A stretch of DNA of 64,000 nt, taken from Candidatus Magasanikiibacteriota bacterium. GTDB taxonomy: Bacteria; Patescibacteriota; Patescibacteriia; Magasanikbacterales; UBA922. The notes beneath the pieces are model-generated. The model was not told the DNA's origin and ran no database searches. It was given only the letters and a program-made list of their open reading frames with translations. The stretch covers positions 5,941 to 69,940 of the forward strand of contig JBPOJQ010000010.1 of NCBI GenBank assembly GCA_052033375.1, given 5' to 3'. Shown here piece by piece: positions 3,906 through 27,296 of this stretch. The translations under genes were made by a program, and so were the position numbers. The number at the start of each line of letters is the position of its first letter. The stretch's first letter is position 1.

Positions 3906-4457
3906 TTGTATATGAAATCATCACTATATCAACTCTATAAAACTCAGGTAGTCCCTACACTCAAAGAAAGAATGGGATATGCCAATGTTATGCAGATTCC
4001 TCGTATCACAAAGGTGGTACTCAATGTGGGATATGGTAAACGTGCCAAGGAAAATGCATTTATCGAACGAGTTGAAGAGACACTTCGAAGAATTGCTGGA
4101 CAGAAGCCTGTTCGAAATAAAGCGAAGAAATCAATTTCGAACTTCAAGCTTCGAGAAGGGACTGAAATCGGATCATCAGTTACTATTCGTGGTGATCAGA
4201 TGTATGATTTTCTATACAAGCTTATTCATTTGACATTGCCTCGTGTTCGAGATTTCCGAGGACTCAACCCAAAGAGTTTTGATGGGAAGGGAAATTATAC
4301 GATTGGATTTAAAGAACACCTTGCATTTCCTGAAATCGGAGGAGATGCTGCAGATCAGATTCATGGATTGGAAATGACAATTTCAACTACTGCCAATACT
4401 AATGATGAAGGACGCGCACTACTCGAAGAACTAGGATTCCCTTTCAGAAAGAAATAA
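3906..4457 (+). CDS. rplE: 50S ribosomal protein L5
   Basis: L5 core VVLNVGYG...FRG; operon position. Confidence 0.95.
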
Positions 4458-4470
4458 ATTATTTACGGTT

Positions 4471-4656
4471 ATGGCAACACAGGCACAGATTTCAAAATCA
4501 CAAAGAAAACCAAAATTCAGCACCCGCGTTGTACGCAGATGCTGGCATTGTGGACGCAAGCGTGGATATATGCGCAAATTCAAATTGTGCAGAATCTGTT
4601 TTCGAGAGCTTGCGAATAAAGCAGCGCTCCCTGGCGTCCGAAAGTCGAGCTGGTAA
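4471..4656 (+). CDS. rpsZ: 30S ribosomal protein S14, zinc-binding type Z (61 aa)
   Basis: 61 aa with [10 protein letters not shown]...CRICFRE Cys4 pattern. Confidence 0.93.
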
Positions 4657-4692
4657 AAGTCGACCTATTCCTAACCTAATTATCTATTACGT

Positions 4693-5082
4693 ATGATGAC
4701 TGACCCTATCGCAGACATGCTCACACGAATCAGAAACGCGCACCAATCGCGAAAGAAGCGTGTGCTTGTACCCTATTCTCGGGTGAAGTTTGCGATTGCT
4801 GAAATTCTTAAAAAACAAGGCTACATTGATGCTGTGGTCACCGAAGAGGGAATGCCAAAGATGATTGCCCTTGATTTGAAGTATGCCGGGAATGTTCCAG
4901 CAATCACTTCGATTACTCGAGAAAGTACCCCTGGGCATCGCATGTATCGCAAATCATCTGAATTGCCAAAAGTATTGAATGGATTTGGTGTTGCAATTGT
5001 TTCAACAAGTCATGGAATTATGACTGCGCAAGATGCACGAAAAAAAGGAATTGGTGGGGAAGTATTGTGTTCAGTTTACTAA
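4693..5082 (+). CDS. rpsH: 30S ribosomal protein S8
   Basis: MMTDPIADMLTRIRNA signature. Confidence 0.95.
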   Translation: MMTDPIADMLTRIRNAHQSRKKRVLVPYSRVKFAIAEILKKQGYIDAVVTEEGMPKMIALDLKYAGNVPAITSITRESTPGHRMYRKSSELPKVLNGFGVAIVSTSHGIMTAQDARKKGIGGEVLCSVY

Positions 5083-5106
5083 ACAGGAACTATTAGCCAG
5101 ACTTAT

Positions 5107-5655
5107 ATGTCACGTATCGGAAAACAACAACTCAGTATTCCTCAGGGAGTAGAAGTAAAGATTCATGAGCAGCTCATTTCGGTCAAAGGACCAAAAGGTT
5201 CGCTCGAACGATCAATCCACCCAGTGGTAACTGTTTCTATTGAAAATGGAATTATTACTGTATCTGTACAGAATCCTGAAGAGAAATCTGAGCGAGCTTT
5301 GTGGGGAACATTTGCTGCACATATCAAAAATATGATTGAAGGTGTGACTAAAGGTTTTGAAAAAAAACTTGAAGTCAATGGAGTTGGTTTTCGTGTGGCT
5401 ATGCAAGGAAAAGATCTCAAACTTGAAATTGGTTTTTCACATCCAGTCGTGTACGCTATGCCTCCTCAAGTTGTTGCTACAGTTGAAAAAAATATCATCA
5501 CATTGACTAGTGCTGATGTGGAAATACTTGGAAAGACCGCTGCTGAAATTCGTGCGTTGAAAAAACCTGAACCATATAAGGGTAAAGGAATCAAATATGT
5601 TGATGAAGTTCTCCGACGTAAAGCAGGTAAAACCGCATCTGCAGGTAAAGAATAA
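5107..5655 (+). CDS. rplF: 50S ribosomal protein L6
   Basis: MSRIGKQQLSIPQGVEVKI... two-domain L6. Confidence 0.95.
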   Translation: MSRIGKQQLSIPQGVEVKIHEQLISVKGPKGSLERSIHPVVTVSIENGIITVSVQNPEEKSERALWGTFAAHIKNMIEGVTKGFEKKLEVNGVGFRVAMQGKDLKLEIGFSHPVVYAMPPQVVATVEKNIITLTSADVEILGKTAAEIRALKKPEPYKGKGIKYVDEVLRRKAGKTASAGKE

Positions 5656-5667
5656 TATTGATATTAT

Positions 5668-6042
5668 ATGAAACAAGCTAATACACGTAGCGCATATCGC
5701 GTACGACGTCACAAAAGAATTCGTAAACAAGTAATTGGTACTGCTGAGAGACCACGACTTTCGATATATCGAAGTCTGCTCAGTATGTATGCTCAACTTA
5801 TTGATGATGCTCGTGGTGTCACCTTGGTGGGAATTTCAGGAACAGGGACATTGACTACGACTGCTGACGCTGGTGAGAGAAAGGGAAAAGTAAAACTCGC
5901 ATATCTTCTCGGACACGAAATTGCTCTCAAAGCAAAAGAAAAGAATATTACTCATGTAGTATTTGACCGTGGAGGATTCACCTATCATGGACGCATCGCT
6001 GCATTTGCCGATGGAGCGCGAGATGGTGGACTCAAATTCTAA
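5668..6042 (+). CDS. rplR: 50S ribosomal protein L18
   Basis: RVRRHKRIRKQVIGTAERPRLSIYRS signature. Confidence 0.93.
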   Translation: MKQANTRSAYRVRRHKRIRKQVIGTAERPRLSIYRSLLSMYAQLIDDARGVTLVGISGTGTLTTTADAGERKGKVKLAYLLGHEIALKAKEKNITHVVFDRGGFTYHGRIAAFADGARDGGLKF

Positions 6043-6059
6043 CCATTTATACTAGCTAT

Positions 6060-6689
6060 ATGTCTAATCAAAAACGTAACGAACGCGGTCCCCGAACACC
6101 CAAAGAAAAACCTGAATTCGATCAGACTATTGTTGATCTTGCGCGTGTAACGCGTGTGACCAAAGGTGGAAAACACATGAGTTTCCGAGCATGTGTCCTT
6201 ATTGGAGATCGAAAAGGGCGCGTGGCATATGGAATTGAAAAAGGAAAAGATGTGCAAATCGCAGTAGATAAAGCAGTTAATCAAGCAAAGAAAAATATTT
6301 TGACTGTGCCTATTTTTAATGGCACGATCCCTCATCGAGTCGAAGCAAAATTTAAAGCTGGAAAAATCATGATTAAACCTGCACCAAAGGGTTCTGGAAT
6401 TATCGCGGGTAGCGCGGTGCGTATGGTACTTGATCTTGCTGGTGTGGGAAATGCATCTGGGAAAATTTTGGGAAAGACTAATAATAAAGTAGTCAACGTA
6501 AAAGCAACTTTTGAAGCGTTGAAAAAATTCAAATCACAGGCAGTTCGTACACTGTCAAAACAACGTCCGGTGGCTCCAGTCGTGGCTTCTGCTGAAGTAG
6601 CGCAGCCTGTTCTTGAGACTGAAACCGTAAAACGAAAACCAGCACGAAAAAAAGCTGCACCAAAGAAGACTGCTGAATCAGCAGCCTAG
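6060..6689 (+). CDS. rpsE: 30S ribosomal protein S5 with ~50-aa C-terminal extension
   Basis: VTRVTKGGKHMSFRACVLIGDRKGRVAYG... S5 core; followed directly by L15 with no L30 gene. Confidence 0.95.
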   Translation: MSNQKRNERGPRTPKEKPEFDQTIVDLARVTRVTKGGKHMSFRACVLIGDRKGRVAYGIEKGKDVQIAVDKAVNQAKKNILTVPIFNGTIPHRVEAKFKAGKIMIKPAPKGSGIIAGSAVRMVLDLAGVGNASGKILGKTNNKVVNVKATFEALKKFKSQAVRTLSKQRPVAPVVASAEVAQPVLETETVKRKPARKKAAPKKTAESAA

Positions 6690-6716
6690 TATAAGGAATT
6701 TCTATAATTTTTTTGT

Positions 6717-16627: not shown

Positions 16628-16647
16628 ATTCCCGCTTTCGCGGGAAT
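16628..16647. repeat. 20-bp GC hairpin ATTCCCGCTTTCGCGGGAAT, right copy (inverted) flanking GIY-YIG gene
   Basis: Reverse complement ATTCCCGCGAAAGCGGGAAT differs from left copy only by a compensatory C>T / G>A pair. Confidence 0.7.
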
Positions 16648-19600
16648 GACGTATGACTTTTTTAGTCAGGTTTTTGTCTACAAGATAAGAGGGAAGAAGG
16701 TACACACACGTTTTTGTAGCGTGTTATTTTATTTTATGGTATACTTGGTCATGTGTATTTCTAATATTTACTACATGAGGCGCTTTTTTGCACTGGTACA
16801 TACTGGTGTCTCCCAAGCGTACATAAAATTGTTTCCGAACACACTCAAAAAACGGACATGGTGGCCGATTTTTGTCGTTGGTGTGATATTGATTTCAGCC
16901 ATGGCGGTTGGAATTACTCATGCACAATTTGGTCTTGAGAGTTTGTTGAATGGTTTGGTCGAGCTGATTGCGACTATTCTGATTGAATTAGCAAAATTGT
17001 GCATATTTTTGACTATTTTTTTCTTACGTGCCTTCATTACTCTTGCCAGCTACAATAATTTTATTGATGTGAGTGTAGTGAAGCTCGGGTGGGTCATGGT
17101 TCGTGATGTTGCAAATCTATTCTTTATTGTCGGTCTTCTTGTTATTGCATTTGCCACCATTCTTGGTTTTGAGAGCTACGAATGGAAACACGGGTTGGTA
17201 AAAATTGTTCTCATGGCAATTCTTATTAATTTTAGTAATTTGATTGCGCAGCTGGTAATTGATGTTGCGCATATTTTTACGATTACTTTTTTGAATGCAG
17301 TGTCTGCGACTGCTGGTGGAAATTTGATTACGTTGTTTCAGATGGATAAGATACTCGCACTAGCCGCTGGAGCGCCTAATACGCTAGGAGAAACACGAGA
17401 AGTTGCCAGCCTCACTCTATTTGCTGGAGGCGCGCTTGCGTTTATTTTTGCGCTTCTTGCCGCACTCACGGTTGGTGCGTATTTGGTGGTCATGATTTTC
17501 CGTATTGTTATGCTCTGGGCATTGATTGTTCTCTCACCATTTGCATTCATGCTATATGCAGTTCCTAAGGGTGAAGATTATGCGCATGAATGGTGGAGCG
17601 AGTTTAGTAAGCATGTGATAGTGGCTCCCATTATGGTGTTTTTCCTATGGCTGGCGTTTGCGACACTGGGTACTGGTCAGATTATTACTGAAATTCAAGA
17701 TGATCCGAATGTTATTCAGCTTGATTCAACAGGGGAGGAAAAACAGAGCGTCACAGTGCTCGAAATTTCTACGTGGGAGAATTTTGCCAGTTTCCTTCTG
17801 GGAATTGGATTTTTGTGGGTGGGTATCAAAAAGACCGAAGAGACAGGTGCGACTGGGGCTGGGCTTGTGGGAGGTGCGATTGATTTTACCAAGAATGTGG
17901 CAACGATTGCGACTGGATATGCTGCAGGTAGGTGGTTGGTAGGGGCTGCAGGAGAAAAAATCAAATCTGACTTTCCTATTATTGGTGCCAAGTCAATTGA
18001 ACGCAAAGCTGCAGTTGTTAAAGGCGCAATTGGTAAGTACAAATCGAAAGTCGATATGGCAAGAGATGCCAAAGTTCAAGACTGGGAAAAAGGTCTCAAA
18101 GGTGCGTGGGATAAGAGAGATTTAGCGGGTATTTTCAAATTTGGAGCGAAACGTTTCCTTTTGGGGAGTGTTATAGCGTCTAGTAAGAAGAAAGATGCTG
18201 TTGCTGAGACGTGGGAAGAAATGGCTCATCTGGCGGATGAAGAGCACGAAGCACGTATATCGAATAGCGGTACATTTGGTGGTGCGGGTAAGGATGAACA
18301 ACGTATACGGACTGAGCTTGCTGTAGAACTCAAAGAGGCGAAGGGAAAACAGAAAGGTGCCGAAGGTTTGTTGAAGTTGAAGGAAAGTGATGAGCAGGTT
18401 AACAAAGATTTGGATATGATAGCTGAGACAGAAATTTTGGGTCATAAAGCAGAAGAGAGGTTACATACCGAAGAGGAGGAGCATCATTTGCATACAGAAG
18501 ACGAATTGCGTACGAAAGGGGAGTCTGCGTTGGTGAAAGACACAAAAAAATACTTTGACTCAGAAGATGCTAAAAGAAAGAAGGGTGGAAAGCCACCTTT
18601 GACCGAAGAGGAACGGGATGCATATATTCGAGAGAAGTTTAAGGATCTCAAAGGCCCTGCAAAATATGCTGCTCTTTCTAGGGGGTTAAAAGAAATGCAA
18701 GCTCGAAATGAGAAGTATAAGGACGCACTTGAGGATGAAGAGAAAATGAAGAAAGAACAGGCGCGATTAAAGCAGAGTAAGATAAACCCAGACTATAAAG
18801 CATATGATGAACGAGCTACAAAAGCTACGCTTCAGTATGAAAGCGCAAAAGGGGTATATGAAGCTCAGGCAAAAAAAGGTAGTGTTGAGATGTTTCAATC
18901 GTTGATTAAGGATCGTGAATTTCAGGCTGAACAACAGGAACAGGCACGTTTGAGTGGTGAGGTTAAGGCGCTTGAGGATAAAAAAGCTGCCGAAAAAGAA
19001 CTCTTAGCCTTAGAAGAAATAAGAAAAATATTAGCAGCAGGAGGTTTTGCTGAATCTATTGCAGCTCAAGTAGCTCTTGAAGCCAGTAAGGGACTTACTG
19101 ATGCACGAAAAGAATTTGTAACAGGTGAAGAAAGGAAACAATTCGGTGGTCCTGCTGTTAGAGGATTTGATCAGATGTTAGCAGCACAGGCTGTTCTTGA
19201 AAATCAAAAAGAAGAAGCTGAACGTAGTAAAATACATAAACTTGCAGAAGAACGTGCGGTGTTTTATGCAGGACAAGGAGATAATGCTCGTGCTGATGCA
19301 ATTCGACAACAAGCGGCTGCTCAGATTTTAAAGAAAGATAGTGAATTGTTTGCAAATTTATCATATAATCAGCGACGTGGAAGGATGGAAGTAGATGTTG
19401 CTAAACTTGATCAATTACGAGATGTTGTAAGTGCTGCGGCACCAGGTTCTCAGGCACAACAAGTTGCTGCAGAAAGATTAGCTCGAGCTGAAGAACGTCA
19501 GCGTGCCCTTGTCTTAAGTAATATTGCTGATGGATCTCAGACTGCTGAAGCAACTCGTGCACAGGCTGCTCGAGCTCTTGGTTTTGACAAAATAGATAGT

Positions 19601-20458
19601 TCTAATTCTAAAGAATTGGAACTCAGAATGTTGCTTGGTATCGCAAGAAATAAAATTAATCAAGCTACCGGACAAGTATATACAGAACGCGAACTTGAAG
19701 ATATCTTCAATAGTTCTCTTGGAGGTTTAAATGATCCGAGACGAGAAAATTATACTAGACAATATATTGCGGCAAATAAGGTGGCTGCTGGAAAAGGCGA
19801 GTTAGGTGGTGTACGGTTGATGTATGATTTTGTTGGTCCTAACGGTAGAATTGATAATCGTTGGCTAGATCAAACTCAGCGCGGCGATGATTCGTTAGGT
19901 CTTGTAGATTATTTTGCTGCGGATATGTCCCCAGAAGCTGGAGTAAAAGGGCTTGCTGAAGTTAAAAAAATTAATCCTAATACGGGCTCTTCGTCAGTTG
20001 CTAAATTTGGTCAAATAGGACGAAAAGCAATGAGAAAAATAACCAAAGGTCAAACCGGGAGATTTTTTGAAAACAAAAGATCGTTTAGAATTTCTCAAGA
20101 AATGAATGAAATAGAGGTCGATAATAATGAAAGTTTTGATGATTTTTTACAAGTCATCGAAAATTTGAAAGAAGATATGAAAGAACAGGGATTTGAGACA
20201 AGTAAGAGTGCGTGGTCAGAATTTTATAAAAAAATGAGAGAGTACGCAGTTGCTGAAGATGCTGCTGCCATGGCTGATCCAAATTTTGTTGGTCCACCTA
20301 GTGCTGTCTCACGATATGAGAGAGCTATAACACCTCCACCGCGACGACCTCAAGGAGTCGTGGGTGGTAATAATCAACCTCCGGGGGGAGGTGGTAGACG
20401 ACCAGGATTCCGGAGACCAGGGGGAGGTGGTAATAATCCACCACCTCAACAGCCGTAG
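16646..20458 (+). CDS. VirB6/TrbL/ConG-like polytopic membrane protein with ~850-aa charged coiled-coil and Gly/Pro-rich tail (true start likely ~16775)
   Basis: ~8-10 TM helices in first 400 aa; Lys/Glu/Ala-rich predicted coiled-coil; C-terminus PPPRRPQGVVGGNNQPPGGGGRRPGFRRPGGGGNNPPPQQP; annotated 5' end overlaps right hairpin repeat. Confidence 0.55.
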   Translation: MTYDFFSQVFVYKIRGKKVHTRFCSVLFYFMVYLVMCISNIYYMRRFFALVHTGVSQAYIKLFPNTLKKRTWWPIFVVGVILISAMAVGITHAQFGLESLLNGLVELIATILIELAKLCIFLTIFFLRAFITLASYNNFIDVSVVKLGWVMVRDVANLFFIVGLLVIAFATILGFESYEWKHGLVKIVLMAILINFSNLIAQLVIDVAHIFTITFLNAVSATAGGNLITLFQMDKILALAAGAPNTLGETREVASLTLFAGGALAFIFALLAALTVGAYLVVMIFRIVMLWALIVLSPFAFMLYAVPKGEDYAHEWWSEFSKHVIVAPIMVFFLWLAFATLGTGQIITEIQDDPNVIQLDSTGEEKQSVTVLEISTWENFASFLLGIGFLWVGIKKTEETGATGAGLVGGAIDFTKNVATIATGYAAGRWLVGAAGEKIKSDFPIIGAKSIERKAAVVKGAIGKYKSKVDMARDAKVQDWEKGLKGAWDKRDLAGIFKFGAKRFLLGSVIASSKKKDAVAETWEEMAHLADEEHEARISNSGTFGGAGKDEQRIRTELAVELKEAKGKQKGAEGLLKLKESDEQVNKDLDMIAETEILGHKAEERLHTEEEEHHLHTEDELRTKGESALVKDTKKYFDSEDAKRKKGGKPPLTEEERDAYIREKFKDLKGPAKYAALSRGLKEMQARNEKYKDALEDEEKMKKEQARLKQSKINPDYKAYDERATKATLQYESAKGVYEAQAKKGSVEMFQSLIKDREFQAEQQEQARLSGEVKALEDKKAAEKELLALEEIRKILAAGGFAESIAAQVALEASKGLTDARKEFVTGEERKQFGGPAVRGFDQMLAAQAVLENQKEEAERSKIHKLAEERAVFYAGQGDNARADAIRQQAAAQILKKDSELFANLSYNQRRGRMEVDVAKLDQLRDVVSAAAPGSQAQQVAAERLARAEERQRALVLSNIADGSQTAEATRAQAARALGFDKIDSSNSKELELRMLLGIARNKINQATGQVYTERELEDIFNSSLGGLNDPRRENYTRQYIAANKVAAGKGELGGVRLMYDFVGPNGRIDNRWLDQTQRGDDSLGLVDYFAADMSPEAGVKGLAEVKKINPNTGSSSVAKFGQIGRKAMRKITKGQTGRFFENKRSFRISQEMNEIEVDNNESFDDFLQVIENLKEDMKEQGFETSKSAWSEFYKKMREYAVAEDAAAMADPNFVGPPSAVSRYERAITPPPRRPQGVVGGNNQPPGGGGRRPGFRRPGGGGNNPPPQQP

Positions 20459-21446: not shown

Positions 21447-22709
21447 ATGGAAAATAGTTCTAAACTACAACCTACGATTCTTGTGAAAAAAGCGGATGGT
21501 ACGACTGAACGTATTACTCTTCAGGAATTTCGGAAAAGAAAGCAGTCGAGTATCGTACAGTCGCCTGTACCAGAGCCGAAAGTTCTTGAGAAAAAAGTTA
21601 CAGTTATTCCTCCAGCTCCACCAAGACGAGTAATTCCTCTGGTTGAAGAAGTCGAGGAACGGGAAGTTGTTCGTCCTACCATGCCTGCACCTCAACCTCC
21701 GGTACCACAGCCTCCTCGTCGTGTAATACCATTGGTAGAAGATGAAGAGCTTATTGTTAACAACAGACATAGAGAAGAGAAAGAACAGGCGCAGGTGTCC
21801 CCAGTCACTCCTGTGGTTCAAGCTGAGACGCATATAGCAAATACCACACCGGTGACGAAAGTGTTTGAGTCCCCCTATACACATCAGGCTTTGGTGGACA
21901 AACAAAAGTCGAATGGTCATTCCGTCCAAGGCGGATCTGCATTGGGCGAACGGTCACTTCTCGACGAAGATGATTCTGAGATTCGGGTTATAGGCGAAAA
22001 GAAAGGGCAGTTAGTCAGTCACACACCAGCAGTGCCAGTATCATTTTCGAGTTCAGTATCGATCCCAAAAGACTTAGAAGCACGAACATCTTCCCTGATT
22101 TTATCATGGAAAAAAGGAATTCGAGATCAGTATCAATTTATTGAGTATGCCATGAAGTCTCCTTCTGATGGTGGGCTTGGGCTTTCGAAGGTTGATGCAA
22201 CCAAGTTATTTGCTGAAATATCTCAGACCGCAACATTGGGTGCTCCACGTCCTCATACTGGGTCGATTCCCGTGGCTTCTATGACACCTCCTGCACCACT
22301 ACCCACCTCTTCGCAGAAAAAAACAACCGTGCATCAGATTCCATCATCAGCACCATCTGTGATGCAGGAGATTTCTCCTGCACGGGAACGTACTGCTGTT
22401 ATGGGTCCCATTGAAGAAGTAGAATCATTTAGTATTGAAGATTTTCGTAGACTGTCGCGGGTTCCAAAAACTGCAGGTGAAATGCTTCTTGCGAAATTTA
22501 GTGGTTGGAAAGATGAGTCATACTTGCTATACTTACAGGTATGCGAGAGTTGGAAAAAAAGTCTATTGTTTCGATTATATATTGAAAAGACAATTGAGGC
22601 AGTAGAAAAAAATCTTATCATTACTGCGGTATTACAGAATGGTGAATTGACGTATGAAGAATATCTAGCGATTGCAGAAGTGAATAAGAAGTTGGGGCAG
22701 ATGGATTGA
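21447..22709 (+). CDS. hypothetical Pro-rich protein with tandem PPxPPRRVIPLVE(E/D) repeat
   Basis: Duplicated motif PPAPPRRVIPLVEE / PQPPRRVIPLVEDEE. Confidence 0.45.
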   Translation: MENSSKLQPTILVKKADGTTERITLQEFRKRKQSSIVQSPVPEPKVLEKKVTVIPPAPPRRVIPLVEEVEEREVVRPTMPAPQPPVPQPPRRVIPLVEDEELIVNNRHREEKEQAQVSPVTPVVQAETHIANTTPVTKVFESPYTHQALVDKQKSNGHSVQGGSALGERSLLDEDDSEIRVIGEKKGQLVSHTPAVPVSFSSSVSIPKDLEARTSSLILSWKKGIRDQYQFIEYAMKSPSDGGLGLSKVDATKLFAEISQTATLGAPRPHTGSIPVASMTPPAPLPTSSQKKTTVHQIPSSAPSVMQEISPARERTAVMGPIEEVESFSIEDFRRLSRVPKTAGEMLLAKFSGWKDESYLLYLQVCESWKKSLLFRLYIEKTIEAVEKNLIITAVLQNGELTYEEYLAIAEVNKKLGQMD

Positions 22710-22712
22710 TTA

Positions 22713-22819
22713 CAGTCGAAAGTCGTAAAGTCTGTAAAGTTATAAAGTAAAATACAAATAACTTTAGGATTTTATAGATGAATAACTTTCGACTTTATGG
22801 ACTTTTTGACTTTCTGACT
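22713..22819. repeat. imperfect long inverted repeat: AAAGTC/TAAAGT array upstream vs GACTTT array in first 13 codons of next gene
   Basis: cagtcgaaagtcgtaaagtctgtaaagttataaagt ... aactttcgactttatggactttttgactttctgacta. Confidence 0.4.
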
Positions 22820-23257
22820 AAGATTATGCAGCAGTTTATAGTCCCACAATTTATTGAAGTCGAAGATAAAATTTTGGGTCCGATCACGAGTCGGCAGTTT
22901 ATTATTTTATTGATTACCGGCCTGATTGTATTTGGTGCATATCGCTTTGGTGATTTTGCATTATTTATTTTTTGTCTCATATTTTTTGGTATTGGTGGAC
23001 TCGTAATTGCGTTTGTAAAAGTAAATGGACAAGCATTTCATTATTTTTTTCTGAATATTGTACAGACGCTCCGCCGACCGTCACGAAGGGTGTGGCATAA
23101 GACATTATCCAGAAAAGAACTTGAGATGCTCAGAAAGTATGTACCAGAGGCAGTTGAGGTAAAGGAACAAGCAAAACCAGTGAAACGTGAGCGAATTCAG
23201 GATTTGTCATTGTTGGTAAATACTGGTGGGTTTTATAGACCTGAGGATGATCGGTAG
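22778..23257 (+). CDS. PrgI/VirB3-like small two-TM membrane protein
   Basis: KILGPITSRQFIILLITGLIVFGAY resembles GP(L/I)T.RQ motif region of Gram-positive PrgI-family proteins; lies just upstream of VirB4. Confidence 0.45.
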   Translation: MNNFRLYGLFDFLTKIMQQFIVPQFIEVEDKILGPITSRQFIILLITGLIVFGAYRFGDFALFIFCLIFFGIGGLVIAFVKVNGQAFHYFFLNIVQTLRRPSRRVWHKTLSRKELEMLRKYVPEAVEVKEQAKPVKRERIQDLSLLVNTGGFYRPEDDR

Positions 23258-23298: not shown

Positions 23299-23319
23299 CC
23301 CTCCCCTAAGAGGGGAGGG
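23299..23319 (+). promoter_or_regulatory. GC hairpin CCCTCCCC-TAAGA-GGGGAGGG sequestering the Shine-Dalgarno of the downstream ORF
   Basis: 8-bp G/C stem; 3' arm GGGGAGGG is the only SD-like sequence, 13 nt before ATG 23333; near-copy of element at 15814-15850. Confidence 0.45.
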
Positions 23320-23332
23320 AGAATACTAAAAT

Positions 23333-24028
23333 ATGAAAGATAAAAAAGCAGTACAAAAACGAGCAAAACAATCCAATACCCAGGCGCATCTTCCGATTGC
23401 TGAGATTAAAGATGGAGTCGTAGTTTTAAAGGATGGTACGATGCGAAAGGTGCTTTTGACTTCGAGTATTAATTTTGCGCTTAAGTCAGAGGATGAACAG
23501 AACGCTATTATTTCTGCGTATGTTGGTTTTTTGAATTCACTTGATTTTCCAATTCAGATTGTAGTCCAGTCACGTAGACTACAGATTAAACCTTATTTGG
23601 ATACACTCAGTAAGCTTGAGCGTGATCAGGCGAATGAATTGTTGCGTGTCCAAATCGCTGATTACCGATTGTTTATTGAGGAGTTGGTAGATATGGGCAA
23701 AATCATGACTAAACGTTATTTTGTAATAGTGCCGTATTCGCCGTTGGATAATCAGAAAAAAAGTTTTTGGTCTCGTGCAAAGGAAGTGATTGTACCAGTG
23801 ATTACTTTGAAACTCAAAGAAGAACAATTCCAACGTCGAAAACAAGATTTGGAATTGCGTGTTCGTCAGATTAGTGCTGGTCTGGCTAATATGGGACTTG
23901 AAATAGCTGAGCTTGATACACAAGCGTTGATTGAATTGTACTACAGTACCTATAATCCAGATATATCTTTTGCTGAACAGATGGGCGATGTGGGGGCACA
24001 GCAAGTAGAAGAAAATTTACCTATGTAA
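23333..24028 (+). CDS. VirB4/ConE (TraE) ATPase N-terminal segment
   Basis: IAEIKDGVVVLKDGTMRKVLLTSSINFALKSEDEQNAIISAYVGFLNSLDFPIQIVVQS matches N-terminus of Gram-positive VirB4-type ATPases; same frame as next ORF, separated by one TAA. Confidence 0.7.
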   Translation: MKDKKAVQKRAKQSNTQAHLPIAEIKDGVVVLKDGTMRKVLLTSSINFALKSEDEQNAIISAYVGFLNSLDFPIQIVVQSRRLQIKPYLDTLSKLERDQANELLRVQIADYRLFIEELVDMGKIMTKRYFVIVPYSPLDNQKKSFWSRAKEVIVPVITLKLKEEQFQRRKQDLELRVRQISAGLANMGLEIAELDTQALIELYYSTYNPDISFAEQMGDVGAQQVEENLPM

Positions 24029-24031
24029 TGT

Positions 24032-25894
24032 ATGCCTTTTCAACCTGTCTCATTTGAATCACAAAATAAACGACTGAGTTCGTCCGCAGACAAAAAGAAA
24101 ACGGATGAAACATTGGTCACGCTTGAGGAAGAGCGTGTCTATCGTGAGGGGACTGTATCCCTTCGCGACTTGATTGCGCCTTCAGCTTTTAATGTTGAGT
24201 CAAATTTTTTGCAATTGGGCTCTATATTTTTGCGTACCATTTTTGTGGTGAGTTATCCACGCTATATTTCAATTGGCTGGTCTAGTCCTATTCTCAATCT
24301 CAATTTGACCATGGATGTGGGCATGTTTTTCTATCCAGTCGAAGCTCCTATTATTCTCAAACAATTGAAGAAAAAAGTGGGAGCACTCCAGGCACAGATT
24401 AGTCAGGATACTGAAAAAGGTGCGCCACGTGATCCTATTCGTGAAACTGCGCTTCGGGATGTCGAACAATTGAGAGATGACTTGACTCAAGGAATTGAAC
24501 ATTTTTTCCAATTTGCATTTTATGTAACTTTGTACGCGTCTACCAAAGAAGAATTGGACCGTGTAACTGAGGATATACACAATATTTTTGGATCCAAATT
24601 GATTCACAGTAAACATGTGTTATACCAGTCAGAACAAGGGTTTAATTCTACCGCGCCACTTGGGATTGATGAATTGGTGATTTCATTTAATATGAATTCA
24701 AGTCCCATTGCTGCGTCTTTTCCATTTATTTCGACTGAACTCACTAGTGATAATGGAATTCTATACGGTATCAATAAACACAATAATAGTTTGATTTTGT
24801 TCGATCGTTTTTCTTTGCAGAATGCTAACATGGTGGTATTTGCGACGTCTGGAGCCGGCAAGTCTTATGCTGTCAAACTTGAAATTCTTCGAAGTCTCAT
24901 GATGGGGATTGATGTCATTGTGATTGACCCTGAAATGGAATATGTACACCTTTCAGAGGCGGTTGGTGGAACCTATATCAATATTTCACTTGCGTCTGAG
25001 AGTAAAGTAAATCCATTCGATCTTCCACGTCCTGTGGGGCAACAAATTTCGACTGAAGATGTGATACGAAGCGCAGTTATCACTATGAAAGGACTTCTTC
25101 GTATTATGTTTGGTACACTTACTGCTTCTGAAGATTCGATTCTTGATCGCGCAGTGCTCGAAGCGTATGCAAAAAAAGATATTACCACTTCTTCTGATCT
25201 CGCTACTATTGAAGCCCCGATTATGCAGGATTTGCTTGACGTTCTCGAGGGAATGGAGGGCGCCGATACGCTTGCACTTAAACTTCGAAAATATACTGAT
25301 GGAACGTTTGCTGGACTTTTCAATGCTCCGACCAATGTAAATATGAACAATCAATTGGTGGTCTTTAGTGTGCGTGATTTGGAAGATGAACTACGTCCGA
25401 TGGCTATTTATACGCTTATTAATTATATATGGAATATTGTTCGATCAGAGCGGAAGAAACGCTTGTTGGTCATTGATGAAGCATGGTGGCTCATGCTTCA
25501 TGAAGATAGTGCAAAATTCATGTATGCGTTGGTAAAAAGATGCCGCAAATATTATTTAGGAGTCACGACAATCACACAGGATGTGAATGATTTCTTGCGC
25601 TCTCCATACGGACAGGCAATTGTAAATAATTCAGCATTACAATTATTGCTGAGACAAGCTCCTTCTGCTGTGGATATGATTCAAAAAACTTTCATGTTGA
25701 CCGAGGGTGAAAAATATTTATTGCTCGATAGTGGTGTTGGGCAGGGAATATTTTTTGCCGGAAATCGTCATGCTGCAATTCAGATTGTTGCTTCGTATAC
25801 CGAAGATCAGTTGGTGACTTCGAATCCACAGCAATTATTGGAAATAGAACGCGCAAAGAAAGAATTTCAGAATGAATTTAAGAAAGAATCTTAG
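24032..25894 (+). CDS. VirB4/ConE (TraE) conjugative-transfer ATPase, C-terminal segment
   Basis: LRDLIAPSAFNVESNFLQLG...; Walker A VVFATSGAGKSYAV; Walker B LLVIDEAWWL (DEAW typical of VirB4/TraC family). Confidence 0.85.
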   Translation: MPFQPVSFESQNKRLSSSADKKKTDETLVTLEEERVYREGTVSLRDLIAPSAFNVESNFLQLGSIFLRTIFVVSYPRYISIGWSSPILNLNLTMDVGMFFYPVEAPIILKQLKKKVGALQAQISQDTEKGAPRDPIRETALRDVEQLRDDLTQGIEHFFQFAFYVTLYASTKEELDRVTEDIHNIFGSKLIHSKHVLYQSEQGFNSTAPLGIDELVISFNMNSSPIAASFPFISTELTSDNGILYGINKHNNSLILFDRFSLQNANMVVFATSGAGKSYAVKLEILRSLMMGIDVIVIDPEMEYVHLSEAVGGTYINISLASESKVNPFDLPRPVGQQISTEDVIRSAVITMKGLLRIMFGTLTASEDSILDRAVLEAYAKKDITTSSDLATIEAPIMQDLLDVLEGMEGADTLALKLRKYTDGTFAGLFNAPTNVNMNNQLVVFSVRDLEDELRPMAIYTLINYIWNIVRSERKKRLLVIDEAWWLMLHEDSAKFMYALVKRCRKYYLGVTTITQDVNDFLRSPYGQAIVNNSALQLLLRQAPSAVDMIQKTFMLTEGEKYLLLDSGVGQGIFFAGNRHAAIQIVASYTEDQLVTSNPQQLLEIERAKKEFQNEFKKES

Positions 25895-25934: not shown

Positions 25935-26558
25935 GTGCGGGGTATGTGTCATAACAATTATACATATATGCTTTCTCTTCGAAAACGAATTTTGTTACTC
26001 ATAGGGAGTGTACTTTTTATTATATTATTAATTTTATTGTGGGTTTTCTTCAGAAAGAAGGCCCCGACGGTTGCCCCTGTGGAAACAATTCCAGAGACTG
26101 CTGAAGTCGAGATTGATCCGATTACGACTGTTGAGTATAAGAGACCAGATACCATTCCTACACAGCCCACAGCAGTGTCTGTCCATCCTGATGAGACGTA
26201 TGCAAAACAAACTGCGCGTATTTTTGTTGAACGTTTTTGGAGTTATTCAAATCAGAATAGCAATCAGCACATCGATGATGCGCTGGAGCTTTCTGTTGAT
26301 TCCATGCATACATGGATTATATCTCAGGCGCAAGAGCAAGGTATGCAGTATGCGGGTGCAACTACAGAGGTTTTGAGTTCGAGAATTTTGTCTCTTGATG
26401 CTCTGAATGCTTCAGTTGAGGTGGGCGCACGACAGGTAGTACAGAGTCTTGATCGTGAAGGTGCTATTGTCGAAGAAATAAAAAATATTACAGCCAAAGT
26501 TGATTTGGTAAAAACGGGGGATACTTGGTTGGTATCCGGATTGTGGCTGACTCCATAA
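25935..26558 (+). CDS. hypothetical bitopic membrane protein, possible VirB8-like
   Basis: Single N-terminal TM plus ~170-aa extracytoplasmic domain; position after VirB4. Confidence 0.35.
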   Translation: MRGMCHNNYTYMLSLRKRILLLIGSVLFIILLILLWVFFRKKAPTVAPVETIPETAEVEIDPITTVEYKRPDTIPTQPTAVSVHPDETYAKQTARIFVERFWSYSNQNSNQHIDDALELSVDSMHTWIISQAQEQGMQYAGATTEVLSSRILSLDALNASVEVGARQVVQSLDREGAIVEEIKNITAKVDLVKTGDTWLVSGLWLTP

Positions 26559-26564
26559 TACGTA

Positions 26565-27296
26565 TTGTATTTATTTTTTTGTGGTATGCAAGGGGGGATT
26601 TTTTATTTTGTTGTACACAATATCTTTGAGTATATTTTTCCTGTTTTTTGTATTATCTGTGGACGTGAAGGTTGGTTGATGTGTGAACAATGTGTTCAGA
26701 GTATAGATACACCGGGTGTTTTTTGTTGCCCAGTATGCCATCGTGAACAGCCTGGAGGAGTGTGTTGTATAGAATGTCGGGGCAGTACTCCGCTGGTTCG
26801 TCATGTTGCGATGATGCCTCTCTCTGAGATTTCTCCTATACACAAACTTATTCATGTGTATAAATATGATTATTGTGAAGAAGCTGAATCAGTATTTGAA
26901 AATTTGGTCACTACTTTTTTTGAGACATATATTTTTCCTCAGGTAGATTTTATTGTTCCCGTACCGTTGCATAGAAAAAGATATGTTGAGCGTGGGTTCA
27001 ATCAGAGTGCACGCATTGGGCGCATGATTAGCGCGGCCACTGGTATTCCGTATATTGACGCATTGTCTAGAGTAAAAAATACTGTAAAACAAGCAACACT
27101 TGACCGCGTAGGTAGGGAAGAGAATGTACGCGATGCTTTTATAGTAACAAAAGAATTACATGAAATTCTATCATGTAAACATATTGTTTTGATTGATGAT
27201 GTATATACTACAGGCAGCACACTGAGAGCATGCGCTGCAGCACTTCACCATGCTGGTGTACGTGAGATTTCTGGGTGGAGTGTTGCGAGAGGATGA
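26565..27296 (+). CDS. comF: ComF-family protein (ComFC-type phosphoribosyltransferase domain)
   Basis: N-terminal Cys pairs CIICG..CEQC, CPVCH..CIEC; C-terminal PRTase motif IVLIDDVYTTGSTL. Confidence 0.85.
   Translation: MYLFFCGMQGGIFYFVVHNIFEYIFPVFCIICGREGWLMCEQCVQSIDTPGVFCCPVCHREQPGGVCCIECRGSTPLVRHVAMMPLSEISPIHKLIHVYKYDYCEEAESVFENLVTTFFETYIFPQVDFIVPVPLHRKRYVERGFNQSARIGRMISAATGIPYIDALSRVKNTVKQATLDRVGREENVRDAFIVTKELHEILSCKHIVLIDDVYTTGSTLRACAAALHHAGVREISGWSVARG

Follow-up and report, generated by a model that had tools for sequence, protein, structure and literature searches.

A TrsD/TraD-like gene beside a virB4 ATPase gene: very probably two separate genes at a type IV secretion locus of a Candidatus Magasanikiibacteriota bacterium

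The locus and its genes

The window analysed here is a stretch of 64,000 nucleotides from contig JBPOJQ010000010.1 (assembly GCA_052033375.1) of a Candidatus Magasanikiibacteriota bacterium. Within it two open reading frames, ORF1 and ORF2, follow one another on the forward strand in the company of genes that belong, or may belong, to a type IV secretion system (T4SS). The features referred to below are as follows.

16646..20458, + strand: candidate VirB6-like channel subunit, 1270 aa, assigned from topology and position only
22778..23257, + strand: PrgI-family (VirB3-like) membrane protein, 159 aa, Pfam PF12666 PrgI
23333..24028, + strand: TrsD/TraD-like gene (ORF1), 231 aa, detached VirB4 N-terminal module, Pfam PF26593 'TraC-like'
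24026..24028, + strand: TAA, genuine stop of the TrsD-like gene, at an equivalent end position in homologs from 80/80 species
24029..24031, + strand: intergenic spacer TGT, 3 nt
24032..25894, + strand: VirB4 ATPase gene (ORF2), 620 aa, without the ~160-240 positions that open full-length VirB4
24842..24865, + strand: Walker A motif ATSGAGKS, ORF2 residues 271-278, intact
25463..25480, + strand: Walker B motif LLVIDE, ORF2 residues 478-483, intact
25935..26558, + strand: candidate VirB8-like subunit, a 207-aa bitopic membrane protein, assigned from topology only
26565..27296, + strand: ComF-family protein (TIGR00201 comF, E 1.2e-28), of a kind typically found at T4SS loci of class ABY1

ORF1 opens with an ATG at 23333, and ORF2 extends from an ATG at 24032 to a TAG at 25892-25894. 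The two starts are 699 nt (233 codons) apart and the genes therefore share a frame; these coordinates agree with the original prediction, in which a TAA and one codon were all that lay between them. Both motifs quoted in that prediction can be recognized in ORF1, SINFALKSEDEQ at residue 45 and LPIAEIKDGVV, although the first residue of the latter, an L, had been misread to give IPIAEIKDGVV.

The PrgI-family assignment comes from a match to PF12666 (E 4.2e-10; 40.5 bits, cutoff 27), and the protein has two TM-like segments (residues 32-54 and 56-85). Its gene occupies the position held by trsC in plasmid pSK41 and by PrgI in pBD-II and in locus L082. Seven TM-like segments lie in the first 350 residues of the 1270-aa protein, which has no Pfam or NCBIfam match. 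As a separate observation, L082 has a 1241-aa gene two genes upstream of PrgI. The 207-aa protein encoded directly after virB4 has a single N-terminal TM-like segment (residues 12-47) and no significant family match. The comF gene is commonly part of ABY1 T4SS loci, according to Quinonero-Coronel et al. 2025 (PMC12102498), and the flanking housekeeping genes comprise a class II tRNA synthetase, RsmB, comF and a lumazine-binding (riboflavin synthase-type) gene. No relaxase was found among the ORFs scanned at about 12.7-35.2 kb, several of which match no family. A promoter-like site (10/12 matches) is located within ORF1 near its 3′ end, at 23927-23956; scanning for promoters and terminators gave no information, as it returned 27 promoter-like sites where 27.5 were expected from shuffled sequence.

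Identity of the two proteins

ORF2 encodes a VirB4 ATPase. It scores 352.6 bits against the NCBIfam model conju_CD1110 (NF045971; cutoff 325) and is recognized by the Pfam families P-loop_TraG, DUF87 and AAA_10. Residues 240-596 align with the VirB4 C-terminal domain of 4AG5 (E 7.7e-46), and residues 266-565, within the ATPase domain, align with residues 446-737 of TrwK, the VirB4 of R388. About 240 residues precede the ATPase domain, yet the VirB4 N-terminal region is not complete in ORF2, as the match starts at position 158 of 752 in the conju_CD1110 model (positions 158-730) and at position 292 of 894 in the VirB4_plasma model (positions 292-889).

The N-terminal positions are supplied by ORF1. 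In NCBIfam profile searches it covers positions 11-91 of the 752-position CD1110-family model (E 1.6e-8), which come from ORF1 and not from ORF2, and positions 90-233 of the 894-position VirB4_plasma model (E 3.2e-10). By tblastn, ORF1 also matches annotated VirB4 proteins of the CD1110 family at their N-terminal ends. ORF1 and ORF2 are collinear with one full-length monoderm VirB4 and complement each other along it, and the claim that the pair jointly spans such a protein was borne out on two models. The resemblance to full-length monoderm VirB4 (the CD1110 family, of PrgJ/ConE type) extends to the PrgI gene upstream; the differences are that VirB4 there is one polypeptide and here two, and that the split point is flanked by about 60 additional residues of low conservation.

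A PDB sequence search with ORF1 gave only a chance match (E 0.48), so that a fold search was needed. The AlphaFold2 (AF2) model of ORF1 has a pLDDT of 67.9, with core residues 20-205 mostly at 70-94, and the best 14 Foldseek matches of this model in the PDB are all TrwK/VirB4 chains (probability 0.99-1.00, 178-210 aligned columns). Beyond these the PDB matches have E > 0.3, which leaves TrwK/VirB4 of R388 (PDB 7O41, 8RTB) as the sole PDB match of the model. The small TrsD-like protein is accordingly modelled with the fold of part of VirB4. As the Foldseek result comes without a TrwK residue range, assignment to the N-terminal part is based on the HMM coordinates. TrwK differs in being a single 823-aa chain of a diderm MPF_T system, with 12-15% sequence identity.

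ORF1 is a stand-alone protein of the TrsD type in its layout, being in the range of ~200-230 aa with its gene placed between a VirB3-like gene and virB4, an order (VirB3-like gene, small protein, virB4) that is common to pSK41 and related loci. The NCBIfam TrsD/TraD model NF041427 matches ORF1 at 26.7 bits (E 4.3e-6; profile positions 20-152 of 201), below the curated cutoff of 200 bits, and matches 48/48 aligned ORF1 homologs (best E 3.6e-9). Alignment of the ORF1 family with pSK41 TrsD by hhalign was weak (probability 43%, E 2.5e-4). With similarity to the small protein of pSK41/pGO1 at this level, below the NCBIfam cutoff and weak in hhalign, membership in the staphylococcal TrsD subfamily was dropped, and ORF1 is filed outside it, as a remote homolog of staphylococcal TrsD. 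PF26593 (TraC-like) is precomputed on the database protein P0001, which is identical to ORF1, and on all 120 listed homologs; hmmscan against a local copy of Pfam, which may lack the PF26593 model, returned no family for ORF1.

The best 120 database homologs of ORF1 are all stand-alone proteins of 211-258 aa with 65-100% identity, and every named close homolog belongs to Magasanikbacteria, Parcubacteria or Patescibacteria. Among the best 150 cluster representatives at 50% identity, 149 are sized 132-452 aa. Long extra low-complexity tails are present on many homologs.

The junction in relatives and in known systems

The original prediction treated the pair as a VirB4 gene interrupted by the TAA and offered four explanations: a nonsense mutation that recently made it a pseudogene, an error in the assembly, read-through of the stop codon, or a genuinely split, two-polypeptide VirB4. 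These were compared across 80 species-level genomes (L001-L080) from Magasanik-, Falkow-, Uhr-, Buchanan- and Komeilibacteria and others. Where plausible, the taxon labels of these 80 loci fit Patescibacteria; about half read 'uncultured Gammaproteobacteria', and two of the labels name other phyla. In every one of the 80, down to about 51% identity, the ORF1 homolog stops and the ORF2 homolog follows, and neither these species nor the 120 closest homologs of ORF1 contain the single uninterrupted ORF that was named in advance as evidence against a split.

The stops themselves vary. A script tally of 79 loci counted 48 TAA, 20 TAG and 11 TGA, and at the locus read by eye (L028) the gene ends at a normal stop, followed by an in-frame spacer of 3 nt. 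Spacer length has a median of 13 nt, with an 11-nt overlap and 287 nt as its extremes. Many of the relatives have long spacers (70-290 nt), and many spacers hold two to nine stops in frame; the junction in L017 and L019 is TAG-t-ATG. The relative frame of the two genes is distributed 31/28/21 over the 80 species, and a uniform distribution is not rejected (chi-square p = 0.37). Since one third of adjacent pairs would lie in frame in any case, the common frame of ORF1 and ORF2 is no more than chance would give.

Pseudogenisation of a full-length virB4 by a recent nonsense mutation would account for two in-frame ORFs, a TAA and one codon apart, that jointly make a whole VirB4. Against it stand the equivalent stop in 80/80 species, written as TAA, TAG or TGA and with every frame relation, and the ATG of ORF2 itself, which is conserved together with a start peptide, M-[AP]-F-[KQE]-P, kept in most relatives. 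Both halves are also strongly conserved (71% mean column identity among ORF1 homologs, 65-98% identity for ORF2 homologs in relatives), the Walker motifs are intact, and a sense codon at the stop site is absent from the close relatives L002, L003 and L005. The probability of such a mutation is regarded as close to nil. A false stop at 24026 introduced by assembly or sequencing has the in-frame layout in its favour and nothing further. The identical 231-aa protein P0001 is in the database, and relatives at 84-95% identity, whose genomes were assembled independently, show this stop-spacer-ATG junction as well, which in L003 is the identical TAA-tgt-ATG; this explanation, too, is given almost no weight.

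Programmed read-through or recoding, yielding a fused VirB4 alone or beside the two chains, is scarcely more probable. The in-frame 3-nt spacer would permit a fusion product in this genome, the seven closest relatives are all in frame 0 with spacers that are multiples of three, and a natural fusion exists elsewhere. However, two to five in-frame stops lie in the spacers of 4/7 of these same relatives, and the frames are uniform over the 80 species. No known read-through context was seen, and there is no sign of stop reassignment, given that neighbouring genes in the window terminate with TAA, TAG and TGA alike. Taken together, the conserved stops, the variable spacers and the use of all three frames effectively rule out nonsense mutation, assembly error and read-through.

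What remains of the four is the split, which is kept in all 80 related species. The best explanation is, with high confidence, that ORF1 and ORF2 are two separate, co-transcribed genes, TrsD/TraD-like and virB4, of a chromosomal T4SS in a Magasanikbacteria (class ABY1) genome, that the TAA is an ordinary stop, and that the shared frame is a coincidence of the 3-nt spacer. That the TAA is ordinary and the gene unbroken follows both from the two-gene arrangement in the 80 species and from precedent, as the TrsD-virB4 arrangement is already known from the literature. PMC12102498 ranks TrsD first in abundance among the T4SS components of Patescibacteria, with 2,272 homologs of which 1,664 adjoin virB4, and describes it as a remote homolog of the N-terminal part of VirB4 without an assigned function; the accessible part of that paper holds no statement that the VirB4 beside TrsD is without its N-terminal portion. 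Guglielmini et al. 2014, which PMC12102498 cites for the homology, does not name TrsD in its main text, so that the TrsD-VirB4 homology rests on PMC12102498 and on the tests reported here.

The locus is one more instance of the Patescibacteria-clade T4SS, with which it has no difference of substance: PrgI/VirB3-like, TrsD-like and virB4 genes are clustered side by side on the chromosome with comF adjoining, and the named close homologs are all from Patescibacteria. The split is common to several Patescibacteria lineages and to conjugative elements of Bacillota. The staphylococcal plasmids pSK41/pGO1 (MPF_FATA, pGO1 subclass) share the gene order and the short spacer; pSK41 has trsC, trsD (227 aa), a 14-nt out-of-frame spacer and trsE (672 aa), sizes close to the 231 and 620 aa here. 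ORF2 and TrsE align with 24% identity (E 3e-44) from ORF2 residue 46 and TrsE residue 36, that is, from the same N-terminal boundary. In contrast to the chromosomal locus described here, pSK41 is a conjugative plasmid with genes for a relaxase (MobA/MobL) and a VirD4-like coupling protein. In a Pontibacillus megaplasmid a 274-aa homolog overlaps a 621-aa CD1110-family VirB4 gene, whereas in L. paracasei pBD-II PrgI is followed by a single-chain VirB4 of 818 aa, so that split and fused forms both occur in Bacillota within the CD1110-type family.

One fused form was found among the homologs, the natural 898-aa protein P0250, which is present on contigs of three independent sequencing runs and sits in the same gene context as the split pair. 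P0250 is only distantly related (about 39-41% identity over the ORF1 portion); its residues 14-222 correspond to ORF1 and residues 312-890 to ORF2, with a Pro/Ala-rich linker of about 89 residues between them. Residues 206-231 of ORF1 have pLDDT below 50, while at the other side of the junction ORF2 residues 1-21 are unaligned to P0250 and residues 1-45 unaligned to TrsE. The break point of VirB4 is a flexible linker inside the N-terminal domain.

It is improbable, though less so than the three explanations set aside above, that the TrsD-like protein acts in the T4SS as an accessory factor in its own right, of common ancestry with the VirB4 N-terminus but not the missing piece of the ATPase. 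The low-complexity tails of many homologs and the ~240 residues that ORF2 retains before its ATPase domain point in this direction, as do the Gracilibacteria, whose TrsD homologs are mostly located away from virB4 according to PMC12102498. On the other hand, the two proteins fall on strictly complementary, collinear coordinates of the models, the natural fusion lies in the same gene context, Bacillota have CD1110-type proteins of both forms, and the two genes are adjacent in 80/80 loci.

The detached module and its meaning

If ORF1 and ORF2 are the two parts of one VirB4, the TrsD-like protein would bind non-covalently to the N-terminal region of the ATPase and so make the N-terminal domain of VirB4 whole again. 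In R388, VirB3 wraps this domain (TrwK residues 15-400), and dimerisation of VirB4 is mediated by the N-terminal domains (PMC9259494), so that the TrsD-like protein would help the ATPase hexamer to dock on the PrgI/VirB3 platform. Given the 3 nt from stop to start and the lack of an obvious Shine-Dalgarno sequence before ORF2, translation of ORF2 here is probably by termination-reinitiation coupling, which would hold both chains at near equal amounts. Translational coupling cannot be general, given the spacers of 70-290 nt in many of the relatives.

A more speculative proposal, which is considered rather unlikely, is that fission of VirB4 is functional and not neutral. The TrsD-like module would then act as an adaptor that binds PrgI/VirB3 and is dosed separately, and the junction would tune its amount relative to the ATPase, by tight coupling here as against independently acquired hairpin inserts of 70-290 nt in many relatives. 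If true, this would amount to an assembly checkpoint in the essential, non-conjugative T4SS of Patescibacteria that is absent from single-chain VirB4 systems.

For annotation, the pair is to be treated as neither a pseudogene nor a frameshift, and merging it into one coding sequence would be wrong. The additions made here to what was known are small, namely the exact complementarity of TrsD and the ATPase to one VirB4, the re-fused form in one lineage, and the location of the break in a flexible linker. From these a concrete, testable role for TrsD follows: it would be the N-terminal half, now detached, of the domain around which VirB3 wraps in R388. Patescibacteria T4SS loci have the TrsD and virB4 pair as their standard arrangement. 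Such a system was described in Ca. Southlakia epibionticum by Wang et al. 2023 (PMC10633639); TrsD is essential in that organism according to PMC12102498, and the T4SS is reportedly essential for its epibiotic growth.

Two adjacent genes complementary to one VirB4

The locus was originally predicted to encode a VirB4/ConE ATPase interrupted by a single in-frame TAA. The coordinates agree with two ORFs that share one frame and are separated by TAA plus one codon, ORF1 being a TrsD/TraD-like gene and ORF2 a VirB4 ATPase gene. The N-terminal motifs quoted for the protein are found in ORF1 except for one residue, LPIAEIKDGVV instead of IPIAE.

Features of the window at and around the junction
16646-20458: upstream 1270-aa ORF, seven TM-like segments within the first 350 residues, no family match; candidate VirB6-like subunit by topology and position only
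21447-22709: 420-aa ORF upstream of the PrgI gene, no family match
Upstream of the PrgI gene: 319-aa protein, no family match
Stop at 23257: PrgI-family (VirB3-like) membrane protein, upstream of ORF1
23299-23319: hairpin
ATG 23333 to TAA 24026-24028: ORF1, 231 aa
Directly between ORF1 stop and ORF2 start: spacer codon TGT
ATG 24032 to TAG 25894: ORF2, 620 aa, same frame as ORF1
ORF2 residues 271-278: Walker A, ATSGAGKS
ORF2 residues 478-483: Walker B, LLVIDE
25935-26558: downstream 207-aa bitopic ORF, no family match; candidate VirB8-like subunit by topology and position only
Downstream of the 207-aa ORF: ComF-family gene

In alignments to NCBIfam models the two products complement each other as a single VirB4: ORF1 and ORF2 occupy positions 11-91 and 158-730 of conju_CD1110 (752 positions), and 90-233 and 292-889 of VirB4_plasma (894 positions). 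ORF2 scores 352.6 bits against conju_CD1110, exceeding the curated cutoff of 325; its residues 240-596 align with 4AG5, a solved VirB4 C-terminal domain, and residues 266-565 with residues 446-737 of TrwK, the VirB4 of R388. All 48 aligned homologs of ORF1 match the N-terminal region of VirB4 models as well as the stand-alone TrsD/TraD model NF041427, against which ORF1 itself scores 26.7 bits, far under the curated cutoff of 200. PF26593 ('TraC-like') is the precomputed Pfam family of a protein identical to ORF1. An AlphaFold2 model of ORF1, computed from the 48-sequence alignment, has a mean pLDDT of 67.9, with core residues 20-205 mostly at 70-94 and both termini disordered. The 14 top-ranking PDB matches to this model all come from the R388 T4SS and are TrwK/VirB4 chains (178-210 aligned columns, probability 0.99-1.00); unrelated proteins appear only at E > 0.3.

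The cluster is flanked by housekeeping genes (a class II tRNA synthetase, RsmB and a lumazine-binding, riboflavin synthase-type gene) and no relaxase was found among the ORFs scanned between about 12.7 and 35.2 kb; the window is therefore chromosomal and not obviously a conjugative element. The 420-aa ORF is proline-rich and carries an internal repeat, RRVIPLVE at residues 60 and 91.

The junction in related species

Querying ORF1 against a collection of 5.8 billion proteins gave 7,518 matches, the best 120 of which share 65-100% identity and are all 211-258 aa long (mostly 228-231 aa); their named sources are Candidatus Magasanikbacteria, Parcubacteria or Patescibacteria group. When 1.84 billion 50%-identity cluster representatives were searched exhaustively with HMMER, 2,425 matched; among the best 150 the length is 132-452 aa in 149 and 898 aa in one, with 53 at 271-460 aa. 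Besides a conserved domain of ~210 aa, many TrsD-like homologs have a long low-complexity stretch, rich in Pro, Gln and Ala, which is at the C-terminus in P0136 (443 aa) and at the N-terminus in P0269 (452 aa).

The junction was compared in 80 loci on contigs chosen as one genome per species (51-94% identity to ORF1; titles naming Magasanik-, Falkow-, Uhr-, Buchanan- and Komeilibacteria, among others). The split into separate genes is conserved throughout: in 80/80 loci a stop closes the ORF1 homolog, with the ORF2 homolog after it on the same strand. The stops are TAA in 48, TAG in 20 and TGA in 11 (script tally of 79 loci), and neighbouring genes in the window also use all three. The median spacer is 13 nt and the extremes are an 11-nt overlap (locus L030) and 287 nt; many of the longer spacers contain two to nine extra stops in the ORF1 frame. 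Relative to ORF1, ORF2 lies in frames 0, 1 and 2 in 31, 28 and 21 loci (chi-square p = 0.37), and its start peptide, M-[AP]-F-[KQE]-P, is kept in most relatives.

These comparative data decide among the four explanations offered for the TAA. A recent nonsense mutation is excluded by the conserved split and the mixed stops, spacers and frames, an assembly error by the same comparison, and read-through, if obligatory, by these data including the extra in-frame stops. A genuinely split VirB4 is the sole surviving alternative; the TAA and the shared frame are real, but the gene is not broken, and the shared frame is a chance outcome of the 3-nt spacer. In the seven closest relatives (L001-L007) ORF2 is in frame 0 throughout, the spacers of 120, 6, 3, 84, 3, 78 and 69 nt are all divisible by three, and they hold one to five in-frame stops; L042 (84% identity) has its ORF2 homolog in frame 1. 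For the run of seven the post-hoc probability is roughly 0.01-0.04, and the run is possibly due to chance.

The hairpin between the PrgI stop and the ORF1 start is perfect and GC-rich (CCCTCCCCT-AAG-AGGGGAGGG, 9-bp stem). It could mask the ORF1 ribosome-binding site, because GGAGG, the sole Shine-Dalgarno-like site upstream of ORF1, sits in its 3' arm. It looks like a lineage-specific insertion, since it is shared with L001 (94% identical) and missing from L002-L006, where the PrgI and ORF1 homologs are only about 10-20 nt apart. In many relatives the trsD-like/virB4 spacer is occupied by an imperfect inverted repeat, AT-rich and 70-290 nt long, and in L052 by a tandem repeat.

Spacer inserts in related loci
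L001: 4697-4816
L004: 4697-4780
L006: 2600-2677
L013: 4691-4863
L027: 2780-2891
L062: 4399-4503
L072: 3860-3960
L078: 4655-4830

Insert sequences of different lineages are unrelated to each other. They have the look of hairpin or MITE-like elements that inserted independently and repeatedly at one gene junction, where they might adjust the amount of TrsD-like product relative to VirB4.

Many public MAG records with the locus, about half of the 80 and including L001, L002 and L004-L006, bear the title 'uncultured Gammaproteobacteria bacterium'; the titles of two others name Acutalibacteraceae and Vicinamibacterales. The Gammaproteobacteria titles clash with the Magasanikbacteria/Patescibacteria naming of every named homolog, and the conflicting titles look like mislabelled or contaminated bins.

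Position of the split and a natural fusion

The N-terminal domain of TrwK comprises residues 15-400 (PMC9259494) and ORF2 retains ~240 residues N-terminal to the ATPase domain; the split therefore falls within the VirB4 N-terminal domain rather than where the N- and C-terminal domains meet. The junction is a flexible region: ORF1 residues 206-231 are modelled with low confidence, and ORF2 residues 1-21 are unaligned to the fused homolog P0250 and residues 1-45 to TrsE of pSK41.

P0250 (898 aa), the only long protein among the best 150 representatives, has its ORF1-like part at residues 14-222 and its ORF2-like part at 312-890; between them runs a linker of about 89 residues, low in complexity and rich in Pro and Ala. 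Contigs of three independent sequencing runs carry this fused VirB4 (L082, at 4001-6697, L083 and L084), preceded by genes for a 1241-aa protein, a 309-aa protein and PrgI, in that order. P0250 is therefore a real fusion, or an ancestral fusion retained, and its existence argues that the TrsD-like and ATPase parts act together.

Known systems and a proposed mode of assembly

According to a study of Patescibacteria T4SSs (PMC12102498), TrsD is the most abundant component detected (2,272 homologs, 1,664 adjoining virB4), has remote homology to the VirB4 N-terminal portion without assigned function, and is essential in Ca. Southlakia epibionticum. The same study places comF with T4SS genes in class ABY1, and a ComF-family gene lies beside the cluster in the window too. 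The staphylococcal prototype pSK41 has the same layout, trsC (VirB3-like), trsD (227 aa) and trsE (672 aa), with a trsD-trsE spacer of 14 nt that is out of frame, and the TrsE alignment with ORF2 begins at the same N-terminal boundary (E 3e-44). Bacillota plasmids show split and fused VirB4 alike: in a Pontibacillus megaplasmid an ORF1 homolog of 274 aa overlaps a CD1110-family VirB4 of 621 aa, and in L. paracasei pBD-II the gene after PrgI encodes one undivided VirB4 of 818 aa, with an N-terminus that matches ORF1. In view of these parallels, the locus is a further instance of a published, widespread arrangement, a real feature of an ordinary and known kind.

At this junction the spacing of 3 nt and the lack of an obvious Shine-Dalgarno before ORF2 suggest that ORF2 may be translated by termination-reinitiation coupling in the window genome; such coupling cannot apply to relatives whose spacers are long. 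The two genes are complementary to one VirB4, adjacent in all 80 loci and occasionally fused. In R388, VirB3 wraps the VirB4 N-terminal domain, and VirB4 dimerisation is mediated by the N-terminal domains (PMC9259494). By analogy, the TrsD-like chain would bind the ATPase chain at its N-terminal part and complete the N-terminal domain, which would aid docking of the ATPase hexamer on the membrane platform formed by PrgI.
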